Shown: positions 10,543 to 14,980 of the stretch, one piece after another
Numbering within the stretch: position 1 is the first letter of the stretch
Layout of the letters: every line of letters starts with the position of its first letter
DNA from: a virus
Length of the DNA: 45,237 bases
Virus genome (UHGV): UHGV-1373231
Reading direction: 5' to 3' (one strand)
Made by a program: the position numbers and the translations under genes
Notes under the pieces: model-generated
The model's input: the letters and a program-made list of their open reading frames with translations, nothing else
What the model was told of the DNA's origin: nothing
The model's database searches: none

Positions 10543-11868
10543 ATGAAAACAGAAAATTTTAAAAAGCAATGGATAATGTGGACCATCCTTGTAACATCTT
10601 TGATTAGTATAGGCACTCCAGGTATTGCTATAATCCCTTTTGCTCTATCGATATATGCATTATCTAAATTAATAGTTGTTAAAAAAATTGCAGAACCTGA
10701 TGTGGCAACACTCCAAGAATTGAAAGAAAAAAATAAGAGTTTGGAAAGTGAAATACAAGAGTTGCAGAACTTAAAAATAGATTTGATGACAAATATAGAA
10801 AGAGGTACAAAAAAACTTGAGCAAATAACTAATTATCTAAATGAAAAATTGATTAAATATGATGTAGAGTTAACTTATCCTTTTGATTTACCAGAAGTAG
10901 ACTCGTCTGAAATTAATACACACATAAAAAAATTAGAAATGAGAGAAAGAGATTTAGTGAGTCTTGAAAAAGTGAAAATTTTTAATGATTCTAAAGAGAA
11001 TAAGAAACATCAAAATGCACAAGCTAAACAAATTATAAGATTGTTTAATGCTGAAACTTCTCAAATAATTAATAATGTAAACGGTAAAAACATTGAAAGT
11101 TTGCAGAACAAAATATTTAAAAGTTATGAAGGAATAAATAAAATTTTTGAAACTGATAATGTACGTATTCCAGAAGACTTACTAGACATAAAACTTGAGA
11201 TGTTAGACTTAAAACACAAACATAAAATTAAGCAAGAAGATGAAAAAATAGTCAGAAGAGAAGAGCGAGCTAGAATGAAAGAAATACAACAAGCCGAAAA
11301 AGAGATGGAGAAAAAATTAAAAGATCTTGATAAAGATATTAAACACCATAATAACGAAATCGAAAAACTGACTAAGTATCTTAATAACACTAACCTACAA
11401 GTCGAAAAAGAATTATATATTGAAAAAATTAAAGAATTAGACGAATCTCTCAAAAATTTAAGTTCTGAACGAGAAAATATAGAAGATAGAAAAGAAAATG
11501 CTCAGTCAGGATTTGTTTATGTAATATCTAATATCGGTTCGTTTGGAGAAAACGTTTATAAGATTGGAGTAACTCGAAGATTAGAACCTATGGACAGAAT
11601 TAATGAATTAAGTAGCGCTTCTGTTCCCTTTGAATTCGATGTACACGCTTTAATTTTTTCTGAAAATGCTTTTGAACTCGAAAGCAAATTGCACAATCAC
11701 TTTAAAAAATATAAAGTTAATAAAGTTAATGGAAGAAAAGAATTTTTTAAAGTTAATATCGATGAAATTAAGGATAAAATTTTATCAGAACACAATAATA
11801 CAGTCCAATTTACAGACGAACCAAAAGCTGTACAATACAGAGAAACTTTAAGGTTAACTTCACAATAA
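10543..11868 (+). CDS. DUF4041 + T5orf172 (MUG113/GIY-YIG-like) domain protein with an N-terminal TM segment
   Basis: N-terminal hydrophobic segment WIMWTILVTSLISIGTPGIAIIPFALSIYALSKLIVV, followed by a long K/E coiled coil. The C-terminus, GFVYVISNIGSFGENVYKIGVTRRLEPMDRINELS...FEFDVHALIF...KVNGRKEFF, matches T5orf172. Confidence 0.55.
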   Translation: MKTENFKKQWIMWTILVTSLISIGTPGIAIIPFALSIYALSKLIVVKKIAEPDVATLQELKEKNKSLESEIQELQNLKIDLMTNIERGTKKLEQITNYLNEKLIKYDVELTYPFDLPEVDSSEINTHIKKLEMRERDLVSLEKVKIFNDSKENKKHQNAQAKQIIRLFNAETSQIINNVNGKNIESLQNKIFKSYEGINKIFETDNVRIPEDLLDIKLEMLDLKHKHKIKQEDEKIVRREERARMKEIQQAEKEMEKKLKDLDKDIKHHNNEIEKLTKYLNNTNLQVEKELYIEKIKELDESLKNLSSERENIEDRKENAQSGFVYVISNIGSFGENVYKIGVTRRLEPMDRINELSSASVPFEFDVHALIFSENAFELESKLHNHFKKYKVNKVNGRKEFFKVNIDEIKDKILSEHNNTVQFTDEPKAVQYRETLRLTSQ

Positions 11869-11917
11869 AATTATGGGTAGCATGTCTACCCTTATTATTT
11901 TTTTACTTTTTTAGGGA

Positions 11918-13297
11918 GTGATGAATTATGAACGTAGCTATTTACGTTCGTGTCAGGTCAGTACGCTAGAGCAAAAAGAACATGGATATTCTATTGAAGA
12001 ACAAGAAAGAAAGCTCAAATCATTTTGCGAGATAAACGACTGGAGTGTATCAGATGTATTTATTGACGCTGGTTTCTCTGGTGCTAAACGTGAGCGACCA
12101 GAATTAAAACGAATGATGAACGATATTAAACGGTTTGATTTAGTTTTAGTGTATAAGTTAGACAGGCTTACACGTAATGTGCGTGATCTACTTGATTTAT
12201 TAGAGGTATTCGAACAGAATAACGTAGCATTCAGAAGTGCTACTGAAGTTTATGATACATCTACAGCTATGGGTAGACTGTTTGTTACGTTAGTTGGTGC
12301 TATGGCAGAGTGGGAAAGAGAAACCATTAGAGAGCGTGTTATGATGGGTAAACGCGCAGCGATTAAACAAGGTATGATACTCACACCACCACCCTTTTAT
12401 TATGATCGTGTAGATAACACTTACATTCCTAATGATTATAAAAAAGTAGTTTTATGGGCATATGACGAAGTGATGAAAGGTAATAGTTCAAAAGCTATAG
12501 CTAGAAAATTAAACGATTCAGATATACCACCTCCTAATGGCAAAAGGTGGGAAGATAGAACAATAACGAGAGCGCTAAGAAACCCTATAACAAGAGGTCA
12601 TTATACTTGGGGAGATGTATTTATAGAAAACTCTCACGAGCCTATTATTACCGAAGAAATGTATCAACAAATAAAAGAAAGGCTAGAAGAACGAATCAAT
12701 ACTAAAATAGTCAGTCACGTATCAGTGTTCAGAGGTAAATTTATTTGCCCGAGATGTGGTGGCACATTAACAATGAACACAGCAACAAGAAAGAGAAAGA
12801 AAGGGTATGTTACTTATAAAACATATTATTGCAACACATGTAAGACTAAAAAACAAAGTTTCGGTTTTTCAGAGAATGAAGCATTGAGAGTGTTTCGTGA
12901 TTACCTATCTAAACTAGACTTAGATAAATATGAAGTAAAGACAAAACAAAAAGACGATGTCGTTACTATTGATATAGACAAGATCATGGAACAACGTAAA
13001 AGGTATCATAAATTATATGCTAAAGGGTTAATGCAAGAAGAAGAATTATTTGAATTGATTAAAGAAACAGACGAAACAATAGCAGAATATGAAAAGCAAA
13101 AAGAATTAGTACCCAGAAAATCACTAGATATAGATAAGATAAAAAAATTTAAAAATGCATTATTGGAATCATGGAAAATATTCTCGTTGGAAGATAAAGC
13201 AGATTTTATTAAAATGGCTATTAAATCTATTGACATAGATTATGTAAAACTTAAAAACAGGCATTCTATCAAAATAAATGATATAGAATTTTATTAA
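11918..13297 (+). CDS. int: large serine recombinase (TP901-1-like integrase), apparently frameshifted at the N-terminus
   Basis: VSTLEQKEHGYSIEEQ...LVLVYKLDRLTRNVRDLL is a resolvase catalytic domain. A Cys-rich recombinase zinc ribbon and a C-terminal coiled coil follow. The RBS-served ATG at 11928 encodes MNVAIYVRV but hits a stop after 13 codons, because GTCAG is duplicated. Confidence 0.8.
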   Translation: MMNYERSYLRSCQVSTLEQKEHGYSIEEQERKLKSFCEINDWSVSDVFIDAGFSGAKRERPELKRMMNDIKRFDLVLVYKLDRLTRNVRDLLDLLEVFEQNNVAFRSATEVYDTSTAMGRLFVTLVGAMAEWERETIRERVMMGKRAAIKQGMILTPPPFYYDRVDNTYIPNDYKKVVLWAYDEVMKGNSSKAIARKLNDSDIPPPNGKRWEDRTITRALRNPITRGHYTWGDVFIENSHEPIITEEMYQQIKERLEERINTKIVSHVSVFRGKFICPRCGGTLTMNTATRKRKKGYVTYKTYYCNTCKTKKQSFGFSENEALRVFRDYLSKLDLDKYEVKTKQKDDVVTIDIDKIMEQRKRYHKLYAKGLMQEEELFELIKETDETIAEYEKQKELVPRKSLDIDKIKKFKNALLESWKIFSLEDKADFIKMAIKSIDIDYVKLKNRHSIKINDIEFY

Positions 13298-13303
13298 CTT
13301 ATG

Positions 13304-13351
13304 TACGGAAGTATAGACACTCGATTAATATTTAATGTGTATACTTCCGTA
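13304..13351. other. candidate attP (48-bp imperfect inverted repeat) immediately 3' of int
   Basis: TACGGAAGTATA...24 bp...TATACTTCCGTA, with weaker flanking symmetry. No T-tract follows on the plus strand, so it is not a simple int terminator. Confidence 0.4.
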
Positions 13352-13380
13352 AAAATAACCACGCTCATAAAGAACGTGGT
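13351..13380 (-). terminator. rho-independent terminator for the minus-strand lysis operon
   Basis: ACCACG-N11-CGTGGT stem, followed on the minus strand by UAUUUUU. Confidence 0.35.
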
Positions 13381-13576
13381 AGCAAAATTTATAAAGGAGT
13401 AAAAAAGATTAAATTGTATGTAATTTAATTGTAGCACAGACCGTGTAACCAATGTAGTGTTAAACTATGTTTTTTTAATATCAATCTATCATCTACATAT
13501 TATAGACATAATTATAATTTATAAGAGGGTAGCCATAGCGACTACCCTTGTATAATGACGTGGTAATTCAATTATA

Positions 13577-14980
13577 TCATTTCCAGTGTATTTTACCCCA
13601 GTATTTTTCATTTTTGATTTTTTGTTGTTTGTCTGTGATTTTACAAACGGCACAATAGAAATGTTTATTACTTGAGCCTGGCTTAACATATTTAAATCTA
13701 ATCCACCAATACCCATCTTTTTTGATTACTTGGTCGAAAGGAACATAATTCCCCTTGTATAACCACGAACCACTTTCAACTACACTCCCTTTAAGTCCAG
13801 GTGACTTACGTACTTTAATAGTACTGTTAGCAGTGAATTTACCTCCCCAGTTCCACGTTGTTTTAGCTTTAGACGGTTTGCTCTTAGGTGCATTGATTTG
13901 TCTACCGTTAATAGCTTCGGCAAGTCGTTTAGTAAACTCATTGACGTTCTTAGTGATATAGTTCATGTCTTTTTTACTAGTGATGAAGCCTAATTCTATT
14001 AATCTGTAATTCAAATTAAGTTGTCCGGTAACATTAGCGTTTAATAAATCGTTTCTAGGTGTTACACCTCTAATTTTACCAACCGTCTTACCTAATGCGC
14101 TAGATAACGCTTTGTCTATATCATCTGCAGGATACCTGTCACTTACAATGACATGACCACCACTTGCTTGAGGGCTTGCAGCGTCTAAGTGGAATTCTAC
14201 AATGACATCAGGCTTAACATTCTTTTTAACCCAATATAAACCATAGTCGGAATAATTACCTACACGTTGTCCATATAACGTATCTTGATACAAGTCTTGA
14301 TTCATTGATTTGCCACCGTATAAAACAACTGTATTACCTACACTTTCAAGATATTTCTTTATTCTAGGAATAATTTCCTTTCTATTGAAGTCACGTTCAT
14401 TATATCCGTTTGCTACGGCACCTGGATCATTTGAATAAGCACCTTTACCATGACCTGCAACAAGCAAGATTTTCTTACCTTTCTTAGCTTTTGCTTTCTT
14501 AACTGGTTTAGCTTTACTTTTAACTTTGTTCTTAGTCGTTTCTTTAGCGTAGAAAGGTCTAATAAACCACATAGGGAAGTCGTAGCCATGTGTACGTCTT
14601 GTAGTAACTTCAGGAGGTGTCCAATACGCACCGCCAACCCAATTTTGCTCCAGTATAGTTATAGAGTTAGAAGTAGCAGAAATAACGATACCTACGTGAC
14701 CATAACCCCCACCATAATTTCTATTGAATATTACAACATCTCCAGGCTTAGCTAAAAATGATAGTGTATTCTCATAAACAGTAGCTTCTCCTGTAAAATT
14801 GTTCCATGTCGGAATGTCTGCAGCACCCACACCTTTTAAAGTATGACCGAATAAATAAAGCCAATATTGGTTAGCTACGTCGAAACATTGGAAACCATAA
14901 GCACCGTCAGGGTTTAACGCTTTGCCCTCTAAACTTTTTAAATATGCAATTGATTGCTTATATGTTCTAACAGATACCAT
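13577..14980 (-). CDS. endolysin: CHAP + amidase_3 + SH3b
   Basis: CHAP: GFQCFDVAN...GHVGIV. Amidase_3: [17 protein letters not shown]. The C-terminus is an SH3_5-like wall-binding domain. Confidence 0.85.

Follow-up and report, generated by a model that had tools for sequence, protein, structure and literature searches.

The integrase locus

The window analyzed here (the whole 45,237-nt stretch of UHGV virus genome UHGV-1373231) contains a gene for a large serine integrase (int), and the features of this gene and its surroundings are collected in Table 1. The long ORF, 11918..13297, reads MMNYERSYLRSCQVSTLEQ and gives a protein of 459 aa if it is opened at the GTG, or 458 aa if it is opened at ATG 11921.

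Table 1. Features of the integrase gene and its flanks, in window coordinates
Feature	Position	Strand	Remark
Conserved 5′ region of staphylococcal int genes	11875..11911	+	terminator-like hairpin, then T-rich tract
Terminator-like hairpin GGGTAGCATGTCTACCC	11875-11891	+	terminator scan
Shine–Dalgarno (SD) sequence AGGGAGTGAT	11913..11922	+	8/10 positions match AGGAGGTGAT; 3′ end overlaps ATG 11921
Upstream ATG, in frame with the long ORF	11921..11923	+	annotated start in GenBank relatives
Large serine integrase ORF	11921..13297	+	458 aa as annotated in relatives
RNA hairpin of 11 bp, 11927-11937 paired with 11942-11952	11927..11952	+	predicted fold
Ancestral integrase start ATG	11928..11930	+	SD spacing correct; start in StB20, L072-74
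GTCAG GTCAG tandem repeat	11952..11961	+	5-nt insertion relative to one-copy alleles
GTC, Val-9 of the ATG-11928 frame, proposed take-off codon	11952..11954	+	invariant in all two-copy alleles
AGG, rare Arg codon from the repeat junction, proposed slow A-site codon	11955..11957	+	
GTC, proposed landing codon	11957..11959	+	GTT or GTG in other alleles, always Val
AGT, catalytic serine codon (VSTLEQ)	11960..11962	+	aligns with the invariant Ser of 61 homologues and TP901-1 Int
TAG, stop of the 13-codon frame from ATG 11928	11967..11969	+	
Phage half of the attachment site (attP)	13305..13329	-	directly downstream of int

The TP901-1-type label that the gene had received from its sequence holds, with Pfam Resolvase, Recombinase and Zn_ribbon_recom domains and, as the closest solved structure, the TP901-1 integrase catalytic domain 3bvp (E=3.8e-39). 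The N-terminal resolvase-type catalytic domain (PF00239, E=6e-41) and the recombinase domain (PF07508, E=7e-22) are clear; PF13408, which homologues carry, scores 23.6 bits in the window integrase, just below the cutoff of 25.3. The AlphaFold model shows beta-hairpins and long helices over residues 280-460. With the TP901-1-type integrases of staphylococcal and lactococcal phages the protein shares its domain architecture, the VSTLEQ context of the serine, an attP adjoining int and site-specific integration into a host gene; unlike them, the protein as annotated has no I-Y-x-R preceding the serine. The attP assignment comes from a comparison with the phage-derived half of a published attL (PMC8125051), which 13305-13329 matches with one mismatch, where no chance matches are expected.

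The terminator-like hairpin upstream of the gene was found in a scan that returned two sites against 0.1 expected. The region 11875..11911 is conserved across relatives and corresponds to the conserved stretch of ~40 bp that Tao et al. 2010 described as a sigma-H-dependent int promoter region; CNPH82 and PH15 are named as carriers of that conserved region (PMC2869324).

Reading frames at the 5′ end

The original prediction described a GTCAG GTCAG duplication at the start of int, and direct reading of the sequence confirms it. The frame that opens at the well-spaced ATG 11928 is ATG AAC GTA GCT ATT TAC GTT CGT GTC AGG TCA GTA CGC TAG, that is, MNVAIYVRVRSVR and a stop; as had been noted, it begins MNVAIYVRV and ends after 13 sense codons, and the ORF listing places the long ORF in another frame. 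Deleting one GTCAG yields MNVAIYVRVSTLEQKEHGYSIEEQ, the exact N-terminus of one-copy relatives such as StB20. Comparison with these relatives excludes a chance repeat and indicates that the extra GTCAG is a true 5-nt insertion with respect to the ancestral state.

The catalytic serine is kept in the long ORF, as had been claimed, where it aligns with that of 61 homologues and of TP901-1 Int. The motif I-Y-x-R-V-S is present in 61 of the 61 homologues, and the annotated ORF has R-S-C-Q-V-S at those columns. The serine and the valine are present in the window gene, and I, Y and R only if translation starts at ATG 11928 and skips 5 nt, in which case the integrase is 454 aa long. No other among the ~110 homologue clusters examined is without I-Y-x-R before the serine.

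The aligned SD sequence lies 8 nt from ATG 11928 and 1 nt from ATG 11921, and the spacing is 6-10 nt in 37 of the 41 window genes with a recognisable SD. ATG 11928 is favoured as the start because its spacing falls in the modal range and because it is the start in one-copy relatives. A predicted 11-bp hairpin (-10.5 kcal/mol, z=-3.95) sequesters AUG 11928; its last paired base is the first of the proposed take-off codon. The window allele adds an outer 4-bp helix, UGAU 11919-22 with GUCA 11957-60, which brings the fold to -14.5 kcal/mol (z=-2.9). The 11-bp hairpin is also found in one-copy alleles, and its variants are too few for covariation (two keep pairing, two break a terminal pair and two lie in loops). 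We identified no SD-like element upstream of the proposed hop site.

The AGG that the insertion creates is invariant among two-copy alleles. It accounts for 35 of the 12,467 codons in window genes (2.8 per thousand, 6% of Arg codons), five of them at other in-frame positions in the integrase, and the window encodes no tRNA able to decode it.

Distribution and origin of the two-copy allele

An identical GTCAGGTCAG is found in CNPH82, PH15, phiIPLA7 and phages 459, 456, 27, E72 and 48, as well as in more than 100 further prophage and metagenome contigs. It is present in 30 of 35 pattern matches in IMG/VR and in 33 of the 38 loci found solely by protein homology to the downstream gene. Protein clusters with the shifted N-terminus have 1,065 and 824 members; nearly all sampled members of the larger one are full-length, and the sample of ~100 cluster members held no new variant types. 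Among 59 distinct complete downstream proteins, 57 are full length. Truncations elsewhere affect a minority of related copies: one cluster with 20 members, and two metagenome contigs of low coverage. The S. hominis allele has a TGA directly after AGG.

In the tree of the window backbone, the one-copy alleles with the same 5′ module branch basally; the one-copy alleles that are nested in the tree all have another 5′ module, brought in by a swap. Since the same-module one-copy alleles are basal, the divergence among two-copy alleles post-dates the insertion, which on this phylogeny has a single origin, in a one-copy ancestor whose form persists in StB20. Across the two-copy alleles dN/dS is 0.03-0.09, about 0.05 overall, with dS up to 0.42.

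The feature occurs on at least four integrase backbones. A 5′ patch of ~45 nt has moved between integrase genes, onto backbones with no more than 41-77% identity, and the phages concerned are those of S. epidermidis, S. caprae, S. hominis and S. haemolyticus (host species were taken from the names of cluster members). A scan of species-representative genomes returned a single match, a 'Rheinheimera tilapiae' contig whose 33% GC marks it as Staphylococcus contamination, and so that scan yields no host range.

Conservation is strongest at the very 5′ end. On a locus set free of ascertainment, 1 of the 41 sites of the core 11921-11961 segregates, as against 22.7% of sites elsewhere in the CDS (P=3e-4); segregating third positions number 0 of 8 in one frame (P=0.0045) and 0 of 12 in the other (P=0.0003). 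This invariance exceeds what either single frame predicts and does not discriminate between a hop and initiation at ATG 11921; the excess can equally be explained by the RNA hairpin, which covers 30 of the 41 nt. With just four unique one-copy alleles of the same module, a test for core invariance before the insertion gives P=0.15 and is not informative.

Is the integrase functional?

The two-copy allele is almost certainly real and functional. Two of the three options offered in the original prediction, a sequencing error and a pseudogene unable to integrate, can be practically dismissed, although its recognition of a frame problem was right. In favour of a dead integrase or of an assembly error that added a GTCAG, one can point to the end of the canonical frame after 13 codons and to the minority of related copies that are truncated elsewhere. 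Against an error stands the identity of GTCAGGTCAG in phage genomes determined independently of one another between 2006 and 2025, and in over 100 contigs, across different technologies and decades; against a pseudogene stand the low dN/dS since the insertion and the intact ORF in nearly all copies. Moreover, five phages were lysogenized in the laboratory at a defined attB and their site-specific junctions (attL) were sequenced (PMC8125051). We checked the alleles of all five, and each carries the identical two-copy 5′ end. The window carries the corresponding attP half (13305-13329).

A switch at the DNA level, akin to phase variation, is very improbable. Here the two-copy gene would be off, and rare one-copy revertants produced by slippage would supply the integrase. 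Tandem repeats can contract, and one-copy and two-copy alleles do coexist within each 90% protein cluster. However, two copies of a 5-mer are a poor substrate for slippage, and the one-copy alleles of the window backbone are basal or module-swapped, with no scattered revertants. Integrated prophages in isolate genomes are two-copy, and many of these loci have int at the prophage edge; the allele at integration was therefore two-copy.

The insertion is thus real, old and conserved; it has moved between integrase genes, and integration at a specific site in vivo is compatible with it. Since it is real and widespread, and since phages that carry it have been proven to integrate, there must be some unusual way in which the enzyme is made.

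A +5 ribosomal hop as the favoured route

We tentatively favour a +5 ribosomal hop, to which we would give somewhat less than an even chance. Ribosomes would initiate at the ancestral ATG 11928 and synthesize MNVAIYVRV, which places GUC 11952-54 in the P site and AGG, the rare Arg codon made by the insertion, in the A site. During the resulting pause the peptidyl-tRNA-Val would unpair, the mRNA would slip by 5 nt and the tRNA-Val would re-pair at the Val codon that follows, which is GUC 11957-59 here and either GUU or GUG elsewhere. Decoding would then resume at AGU, the catalytic serine, to give the canonical MNVAIYVRV-STLEQ enzyme with the junction MNVAIYVRVSTLE. Ribosomes that fail to hop would terminate four codons on or, in the S. 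hominis allele, at the TGA next to AGG. The likely consequence is a low yield of integrase, perhaps dependent on host physiology. Translational recoding was not among the options that had originally been listed for this gene.

The take-off and landing codons both encode Val, and removal of the 5 nt gives the one-copy protein exactly. Of the shifts considered, only +5 offers cognate re-pairing and recreates the ancestral protein without change. Against the Pfam Resolvase profile the repaired N-terminus scores 155.8 bits and is matched from position 1, whereas the ATG-11921 product scores 143.8 bits and is matched only from position 7.

The substitutions at codons 2-9 are suggestive at most. In the ATG-11928 frame they are N2D (at a variable position), A4G (Gly being the only alternative at that position within the family) and, at Arg-8, the silent change CGT>CGC; the same three changes read E>G, S>R and C>R when the other frame is used. 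The pattern appears to favour the ATG-11928 frame, from three events only and with a chance probability of ~0.09.

Several observations count against the hop. The rarity of AGG is no more than moderate, and five others occur in frame within the integrase. In laboratory constructs, short hops at sense codons have a low efficiency, ~1% or less unless there is starvation. The conservation of ATG 11921, the hairpin over AUG 11928 and a Y-L-R in the other frame, all taken up below, count against it too.

Alternative initiation and other forms of recoding

A start at ATG 11921 (or GTG 11918), giving an active 458-aa integrase that begins MNYERSYLRSCQ-VSTLEQ, is a serious possibility on which we place rather less belief than would make it our choice. 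It is the third option of the original prediction and falls short of being the best-supported reading. Such an enzyme would be active without the canonical first beta-strand and without the Arg two residues before the catalytic Ser, and would yield the peptides RSYLRSCQVSTLE and SCQVSTLEQK.

This route has the merit of requiring no non-standard decoding. ATG 11921 shares the frame of the entire ORF and, as initiation there requires, is retained by every two-copy allele on every backbone. The predicted hairpin buries AUG 11928, but AUG 11921 lies largely outside its inner stem, and this could help ATG 11921 to compete in spite of its poor spacing. The phages do integrate, and a low level of integrase suffices. 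The N-terminus in this frame also holds a Y-L-R that loosely mimics Y-V-R: AlphaFold models S6-Y7-L8-R9-S10 as a short, weak strand, and Y7-L8-R9 might substitute with a 3-residue bulge.

Set against this, ATG 11921 is 1 nt from the aligned SD core, well outside the spacing of most window genes with a recognisable SD. Basal one-copy alleles have this ATG too, though out of frame, so that it is older than the insertion. The product replaces the I, Y and R of a motif kept in all 61 homologues, and the counterpart of that R in Tn3/gamma-delta resolvase, Arg-8, is catalytic. Relative to the repaired N-terminus it loses 12 bits and positions 1-6 of the Pfam profile. AlphaFold gives its residues 1-10 a pLDDT of 48 and residues 11-20 one of 53, with the short strand out of register with the serine, compared with a pLDDT of 87 for a canonical homologue modelled from the same alignment, in which strand 2-9 runs straight into Ser-10. 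Finally, the first 12 codons of this frame show five substitutions (N>Y, N>H, E>G, S>R and C>R), every one of which alters the amino acid, and radically so.

Other recoding events, or two products from one gene, are improbable. A +2 or -1 shift at GUC-AGG would add one or two residues (MNVAIYVRV-V-STLEQ or ...RV-Q-VSTLEQ), and the -1 product does match the Pfam profile from position 1, with 148.2 bits. However, the site lacks a slippery heptamer, tRNA-Val would find no cognate pairing on UGU or CAG, and the extra residues would break the R-x-S spacing kept in 61/61 homologues. Slippage by -1 or +2 was accordingly set aside, the -1 product also fitting the profile less well than the hop product; transcriptional slippage was likewise rejected, as the repeat site has no homopolymer run. 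In the two-product version the hop would coexist with an ATG-11921 isoform, possibly a catalytically impaired one with a regulatory role. Conservation of the core beyond either frame fits such dual use, but is explained as well by the hairpin.

Consequences for annotation and biology

Whether the hop or ATG 11921 is used, the solution is non-canonical and lies in a common, experimentally tractable gene. Automatic annotation has probably given the wrong N-terminus to well over a thousand such genes, and integrase tools cloned from the annotated ORF may be poorly active. If the upstream ATG were used, a large serine integrase would work without the I-Y-x-R strand and the catalytic arginine, and the accepted active-site model would have to be revised for enzymes that are common in genome engineering.

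If the hop is correct, it would be a rare natural case of short programmed translational bypassing in bacteria, and the first known to us in an integrase and in staphylococcal phages. It would come with an evolutionary series of one-copy ancestors, two-copy descendants and transfers to other backbones. In S. epidermidis, S. hominis and S. haemolyticus, all of them opportunistic pathogens of importance, a built-in throttle on the integrase could affect how stable prophages are and how genes are transferred.

One may go further, to an idea that we regard as speculative and rather unlikely: that the ~45-nt patch (SD, ATG, nine codons and GTCAG) is a mobile recoding cassette. It would tie the integrase to a +5 hop at AGG, make its yield track the translational status of the host, and have been positively selected and copied onto unrelated serine integrases across coagulase-negative Staphylococcus. 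Establishment of lysogeny and prophage excision would then track arginyl-tRNA supply, starvation and the sigma-H state.

Comparison with known recoding systems

In the literature we found no account of a +5 hop that is conserved in nature in a gene of a bacterial virus, and no earlier description of the two-copy integrase feature. A known case of bypassing is phage T4 gene 60, where a gap of 50 nt is crossed from GGA to GGA with an efficiency of 30-50%, aided by a stop codon after the take-off site, a nascent-peptide signal of ~46 residues and a take-off stem-loop. The proposed integrase hop resembles it in its matched take-off and landing codons served by one peptidyl-tRNA, in the resumption of decoding at the next codon, in the RNA structure near take-off and in the association of the element with mobility. 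It differs in that the nascent chain is only nine residues long, that there is no stop in the A site (the TGA of S. hominis is one codon later) and that the efficiency is probably low.

A published precedent that speaks for the hop is the terminase of the Streptomyces phage phiHau3, with short bypassing triggered by a rare codon, UUA followed by 10-nt inserts (PMC10732093). In both cases a short non-coding insert splits a conserved phage protein just behind a rare, slow sense-codon context, insert-free homologues join the flanks seamlessly, a 5′ stem-loop adjoins the site and the yield is proposed to depend on host tRNA status. The integrase gap is 5 nt rather than 10 nt; its rare codon is AGG in a low-GC Firmicute and was created by the insertion itself; and the site lies nine codons from the start, not inside the gene as in the terminase. 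The integrase allele is, moreover, common (clusters of ~1,000 sequences) and has moved between backbones, and its in-frame upstream ATG provides a non-recoding alternative that phiHau3 does not have.

According to the accounts given in PMC5009743 and PMC10732093, 'hungry codon' hops of +5/+6 (Weiss et al. 1987; Gallant and Lindsley) and AGG-dependent shifts such as that at Ty1 CUU-AGG-C are documented. As proposed here, a P-site tRNA re-pairs at a nearby synonymous codon with a slow codon in the A site; unlike the integrase, those cases are synthetic or heterologous constructs or yeast retrotransposons.

The 'savior' or compensated indels, for example in the G-run of herpesvirus thymidine kinase (PMC5009743), are similar in that an inactivating indel is tolerated through low-level non-standard decoding, with the reduced level perhaps being advantageous. 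They involve single-nucleotide slippage in homopolymer runs rather than a 5-nt hop, and they are recent escape mutations, whereas the integrase allele is ancient, conserved and horizontally spread.

The integrase gene and its reading frames

The int gene of the window is predicted to encode a large serine integrase; its product matches the Pfam profiles Resolvase, Recombinase, and Zn_ribbon_recom (the last at 23.6 bits, below the 25.3 cutoff), and among solved structures the catalytic domain of TP901-1 integrase is nearest (E=3.8e-39). By direct reading, the site near its 5' end is ...AGGGAGTGATGAATTATGAACGTAGCTATTTACGTTCGTGTCAGGTCAGTACGCTAGAGC..., and the GTCAG duplication and N-terminal frame shift described in the original prediction are present, every coordinate and translation having proved correct when rechecked on the window sequence.

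Features of int and its surroundings in the window
Feature	Position	Strand	Basis
Gene for a 441-aa protein with DUF4041 and T5orf172/MUG113 (GIY-YIG-like)	10543-11868	+	
Conserved GGGTAG...CTACCC stem, then T-run	11875-11911		
Shine–Dalgarno (SD) sequence	11913-11922		
Tandem repeat GTCAG GTCAG	11952-11961	+	direct reading of window
Short frame from ATG 11928: MNVAIYVRVRSVR	stop TAG 11967-69	+	direct translation
Long ORF, different frame from ATG 11928: (M)MNYERSYLRSCQVSTLEQ	11918/11921-13297	+	ORF listing
Interval from int to the lysin gene	13298-13576		
Phage half of the published att site, 1 mismatch	13305-13329		
Lysin gene	13577-14980	-	

Distribution of the two-copy site

Megablast matched the locus to 27 Staphylococcus phage records, and GTCAGGTCAG is identical in CNPH82, PH15, phiIPLA7, and vB_SepS_459, in all of which the gene start is annotated at the ATG equivalent to 11921. 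An IMG/VR scan, with a pattern that allowed both copy numbers, found 30 two-copy and 5 one-copy loci; a search by protein homology alone, using only the gene region 3' of the site, yielded 38 loci that share the window's integrase backbone, of which 33 were two-copy. Another 43 related two-copy contigs came from a metagenome scan, whose one other match (L179) was unrelated and due to chance. The shifted N-terminus heads a 1,065-member protein cluster, 'recombinase family protein [Staphylococcus epidermidis]', and each 90% cluster holds one-copy and two-copy lengths side by side. Named hosts include S. epidermidis, S. caprae, S. hominis, and S. haemolyticus. The sequencing error once considered, and likewise a mutation private to this phage, is refuted by the identical site in independent phage records and many contigs.

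A two-copy integrase module of the S. epidermidis type also lies in a 79.7-kb contig of 'Rheinheimera tilapiae' KCTC 23315 (L123, NZ_JBHLXP010000009.1). GC content is 33% over the 8 kb of it that were analysed, the assembly is gammaproteobacterial, and the contig is almost certainly Staphylococcus contamination. A comparable mislabel probably explains protein cluster P0002, recorded as Pseudomonas aeruginosa.

Origin and mobility of the 5' module

Judging from a neighbor-joining tree of the CDS downstream of the site, the second GTCAG is a derived insertion with one origin on the window's backbone. One-copy alleles whose 5' sequence is the same (L072-74, StB20) branch at the base, and the two-copy alleles form the crown. 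Phages StB20 (S. capitis) and StB27 and StB12 (S. hominis) have a single GTCAG and read directly as MNVAIY[V/C]RVSTLEQ. The only one-copy alleles nested in the crown (L069, L071) carry another, swapped 5' module with a TTG start, so 5'-end swapping runs both ways. These two IMG/VR prophages have the 5' end GAGGAGTGATAGATTGAATGTAGCAATATATTGTCGCGTCAGT and encode integrases 96% identical to the window's protein.

The 5' module (~45 nt: SD, ATG, nine codons, and GTCAG) is mobile between integrase genes. Its DNA occurs on at least four backbones with mutual protein identity of 41-77%, and the shifted N-terminus M[N/Y/H]YERSYLRS[C/R]QVS also tops clusters P0002, P0003, and P0006/P0008 (84%, 80%, and ~70% identical to the window's protein, respectively) and the 824-member P0044, just 43% identical to it. 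On the S. hominis backbone, the two-copy form is ...CGT GTC AG|GTG AGT TCC, and one-copy alleles (97-98% identical) read ATGAAAGTGGCAATCTACACAAGAGTGAGTTCC; by this comparison, the native 5' end was exchanged for a patch that begins at the SD and ends with the inserted GTCAG, and the 'second copy' here is just the recipient's own Val-Ser codons.

In five S. haemolyticus proteins (P0149, P0152, P0155, P0159, and P0162), E/G at codon 4 and C/R at codon 11 of the shifted N-terminus occur in all four combinations, which implies that mutation recurred or that recombination took place within ~20 nt of the module.

Evidence that the gene functions

Comparison of the window with other two-copy alleles gave a dN/dS of 0.03-0.09 at dS up to 0.42, and because one-copy alleles with the same module are basal in the tree, this divergence post-dates the insertion. 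The downstream protein is full-length in 57 of the 59 distinct complete sequences, and truncated copies are a small minority (a 20-member cluster vs 1,065 members in the main one). Fisarova et al. (2021; PMC8125051) made laboratory lysogens of S. epidermidis with phages 27, 48, 456, 459, and E72, all five of which had integrated into one FAD-dependent oxidoreductase gene; the phage 48 lysogen had its attL junction sequenced. The two-copy sequence is identical in all five genomes (5/5), and the phage half of the published att site directly follows int in the window. Low dN/dS, intact ORFs, laboratory lysogeny by same-allele phages, and the matching att half thus refute the pseudogene proposed in the original prediction, and we are highly confident that the two-copy allele is real and functional. 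In sum, the 5-nt insertion sits in working serine integrase genes, is conserved and widespread, and moves horizontally.

Some two-copy integrase genes (cluster P0007, L165, and L178) end at 284-378 aa, and one of these truncated genes belongs to a complete chromosome of S. epidermidis; prophage decay or low assembly coverage presumably explains them.

Start codon and N-terminus

The motif I-Y-x-R-V-S, whose Arg is an active-site residue in resolvases, runs directly up to the catalytic Ser in 61/61 homologues; the annotated ORF has R-S-C-Q-V-S in these columns. The annotated product (458 aa from ATG 11921) scores 143.8 bits without Pfam profile positions 1-6, and the 5-nt-repaired protein (454 aa) 155.8 bits. 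AlphaFold gave the first 20 residues of the annotated product pLDDT values of 48 and 53, with a 5-residue strand and the Ser out of register; with the same alignment, a canonical homologue showed a strand at 2-9 leading into Ser-10 (pLDDT 87). The position of the annotated start is also poor: only 1 nt separates ATG 11921 from the aligned SD core, and this codon overlaps the extended SD. The SD spacing of ATG 11928 is 8 nt, and spacings of 6-10 nt are seen in 37 of the 41 window genes whose SD is recognisable. The basal one-copy alleles already have the upstream ATG, though not in frame. The insertion requires either non-standard decoding or non-canonical enzymology.

Initiation at ATG 11921 could make an active integrase with a new N-terminus and would need no recoding. 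This ATG is kept in all two-copy alleles, the new N-terminus by chance includes Y-L-R, a hairpin may handicap AUG 11928, and integrase is needed only in small quantity. However, the 1-nt SD spacing, the missing I-Y-x-R, and the weaker Pfam and AlphaFold fit count against it. The GTG 11918/ATG 11921 start of the original prediction survives as the main rival, in our view somewhat less probable than the hop described below.

Nucleotide constraint and a candidate +5 hop

Among 30 unique, ascertainment-free two-copy alleles, the 41-nt core from 11921 to 11961 has 1/41 segregating sites vs 22.7% of columns in the remaining CDS (P=3e-4), and all other 41-nt segments of the gene have at least three. 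No third position of either frame varies in the core (P=0.0045 and P=0.0003), so the nucleotides themselves are constrained more than a single coding frame would require; RNA structure, signals for recoding, or dual decoding could each account for this. The SD just 5' of the core and the codons just 3' are polymorphic, which makes it unlikely that a recent sweep is the only cause.

We tentatively favor, with slightly less than even confidence, production of the active integrase by a +5 ribosomal hop from take-off GUC 11952-54 to landing GUC 11957-59. Shifts of -1, +2, or +5 could join the ATG-11928 frame to the integrase frame, but only +5 permits cognate re-pairing of the P-site tRNA (GUC to GUC) and only +5 regains the exact ancestral protein. 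The P-site tRNA would re-pair across 5 nt to give that protein, and ribosomes that did not hop would terminate four codons on or, on the S. hominis backbone, at the TGA right after AGG. This AGG, which follows the take-off codon, is a product of the repeat junction, invariant among two-copy alleles, and rare in the window phage, at 2.8 per thousand codons and 6% of those for Arg. The landing codon is GTC, GTT, or GTG across alleles, Val every time.

A significantly stable 11-bp hairpin (z=-3.95) covers AUG 11928 and ends on the first nucleotide of the take-off codon, and in the window allele the second GUCA pairs with UGAU of the SD region, adding a 4-bp helix. The 11-bp hairpin, also found in one-copy alleles, may promote forward slippage or merely limit initiation; it is a candidate comparable with the 5' stem-loops of T4 gene 60 and Streptomyces phage phiHau3, which are proposed to promote forward slippage. 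The nearest published analogue of the hop is the phiHau3 terminase, with a candidate rare-UUA-triggered bypass of 10-nt inserts (PMC10732093).

Read from ATG 11928, the few module substitutions are N2D, which falls at a variable position, A4G, where Gly is the one other residue that the family uses, and CGT>CGC, silent at Arg-8; the other frame would have E>G, S>R, and C>R, as well as N>Y and N>H. This pattern fits the ATG-11928 frame but is no more than suggestive (three events, chance probability ~0.09).

Other shifts, dual products, or DNA-level switching take the remaining share of probability. Reversion of the DNA to one copy is unlikely because integrated prophages are themselves two-copy and one-copy alleles are not scattered across the tree.

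The frame problem goes unmentioned in the CNPH82, phiIPLA7, and transduction papers, literature searches by keyword and shifted peptide returned nothing on it, and neither 'integrase' nor 'Staphylococcus' occurs in the 2016 recoding review. Phages and integration assays with which int decoding can be tested already exist.

Genomic neighborhood

The conserved stem and T-run upstream of int score as a bidirectional intrinsic terminator. They correspond to the sigma-H-dependent int promoter region reported for staphylococcal prophages, including CNPH82 and PH15 (Tao et al. 2010; PMC2869324), and the int mRNA therefore probably starts near the SD. The element may be both the end of the upstream transcript and the start of the int transcript.

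The slot directly 5' of int, occupied in the window by the 441-aa protein gene, holds an unrelated DUF5067 or hypothetical gene in CNPH82, 459, and phiIPLA7, and is therefore a position in the lysogeny module where accessory genes vary. CNPH82, 456, 459, and 27 have an additional ~1.16-kb endonuclease gene between int and lysin. In the window just 280 nt separate the two, with attP in between, and this adjacency shows that the phage genome is excised or circularly permuted rather than integrated as a prophage.
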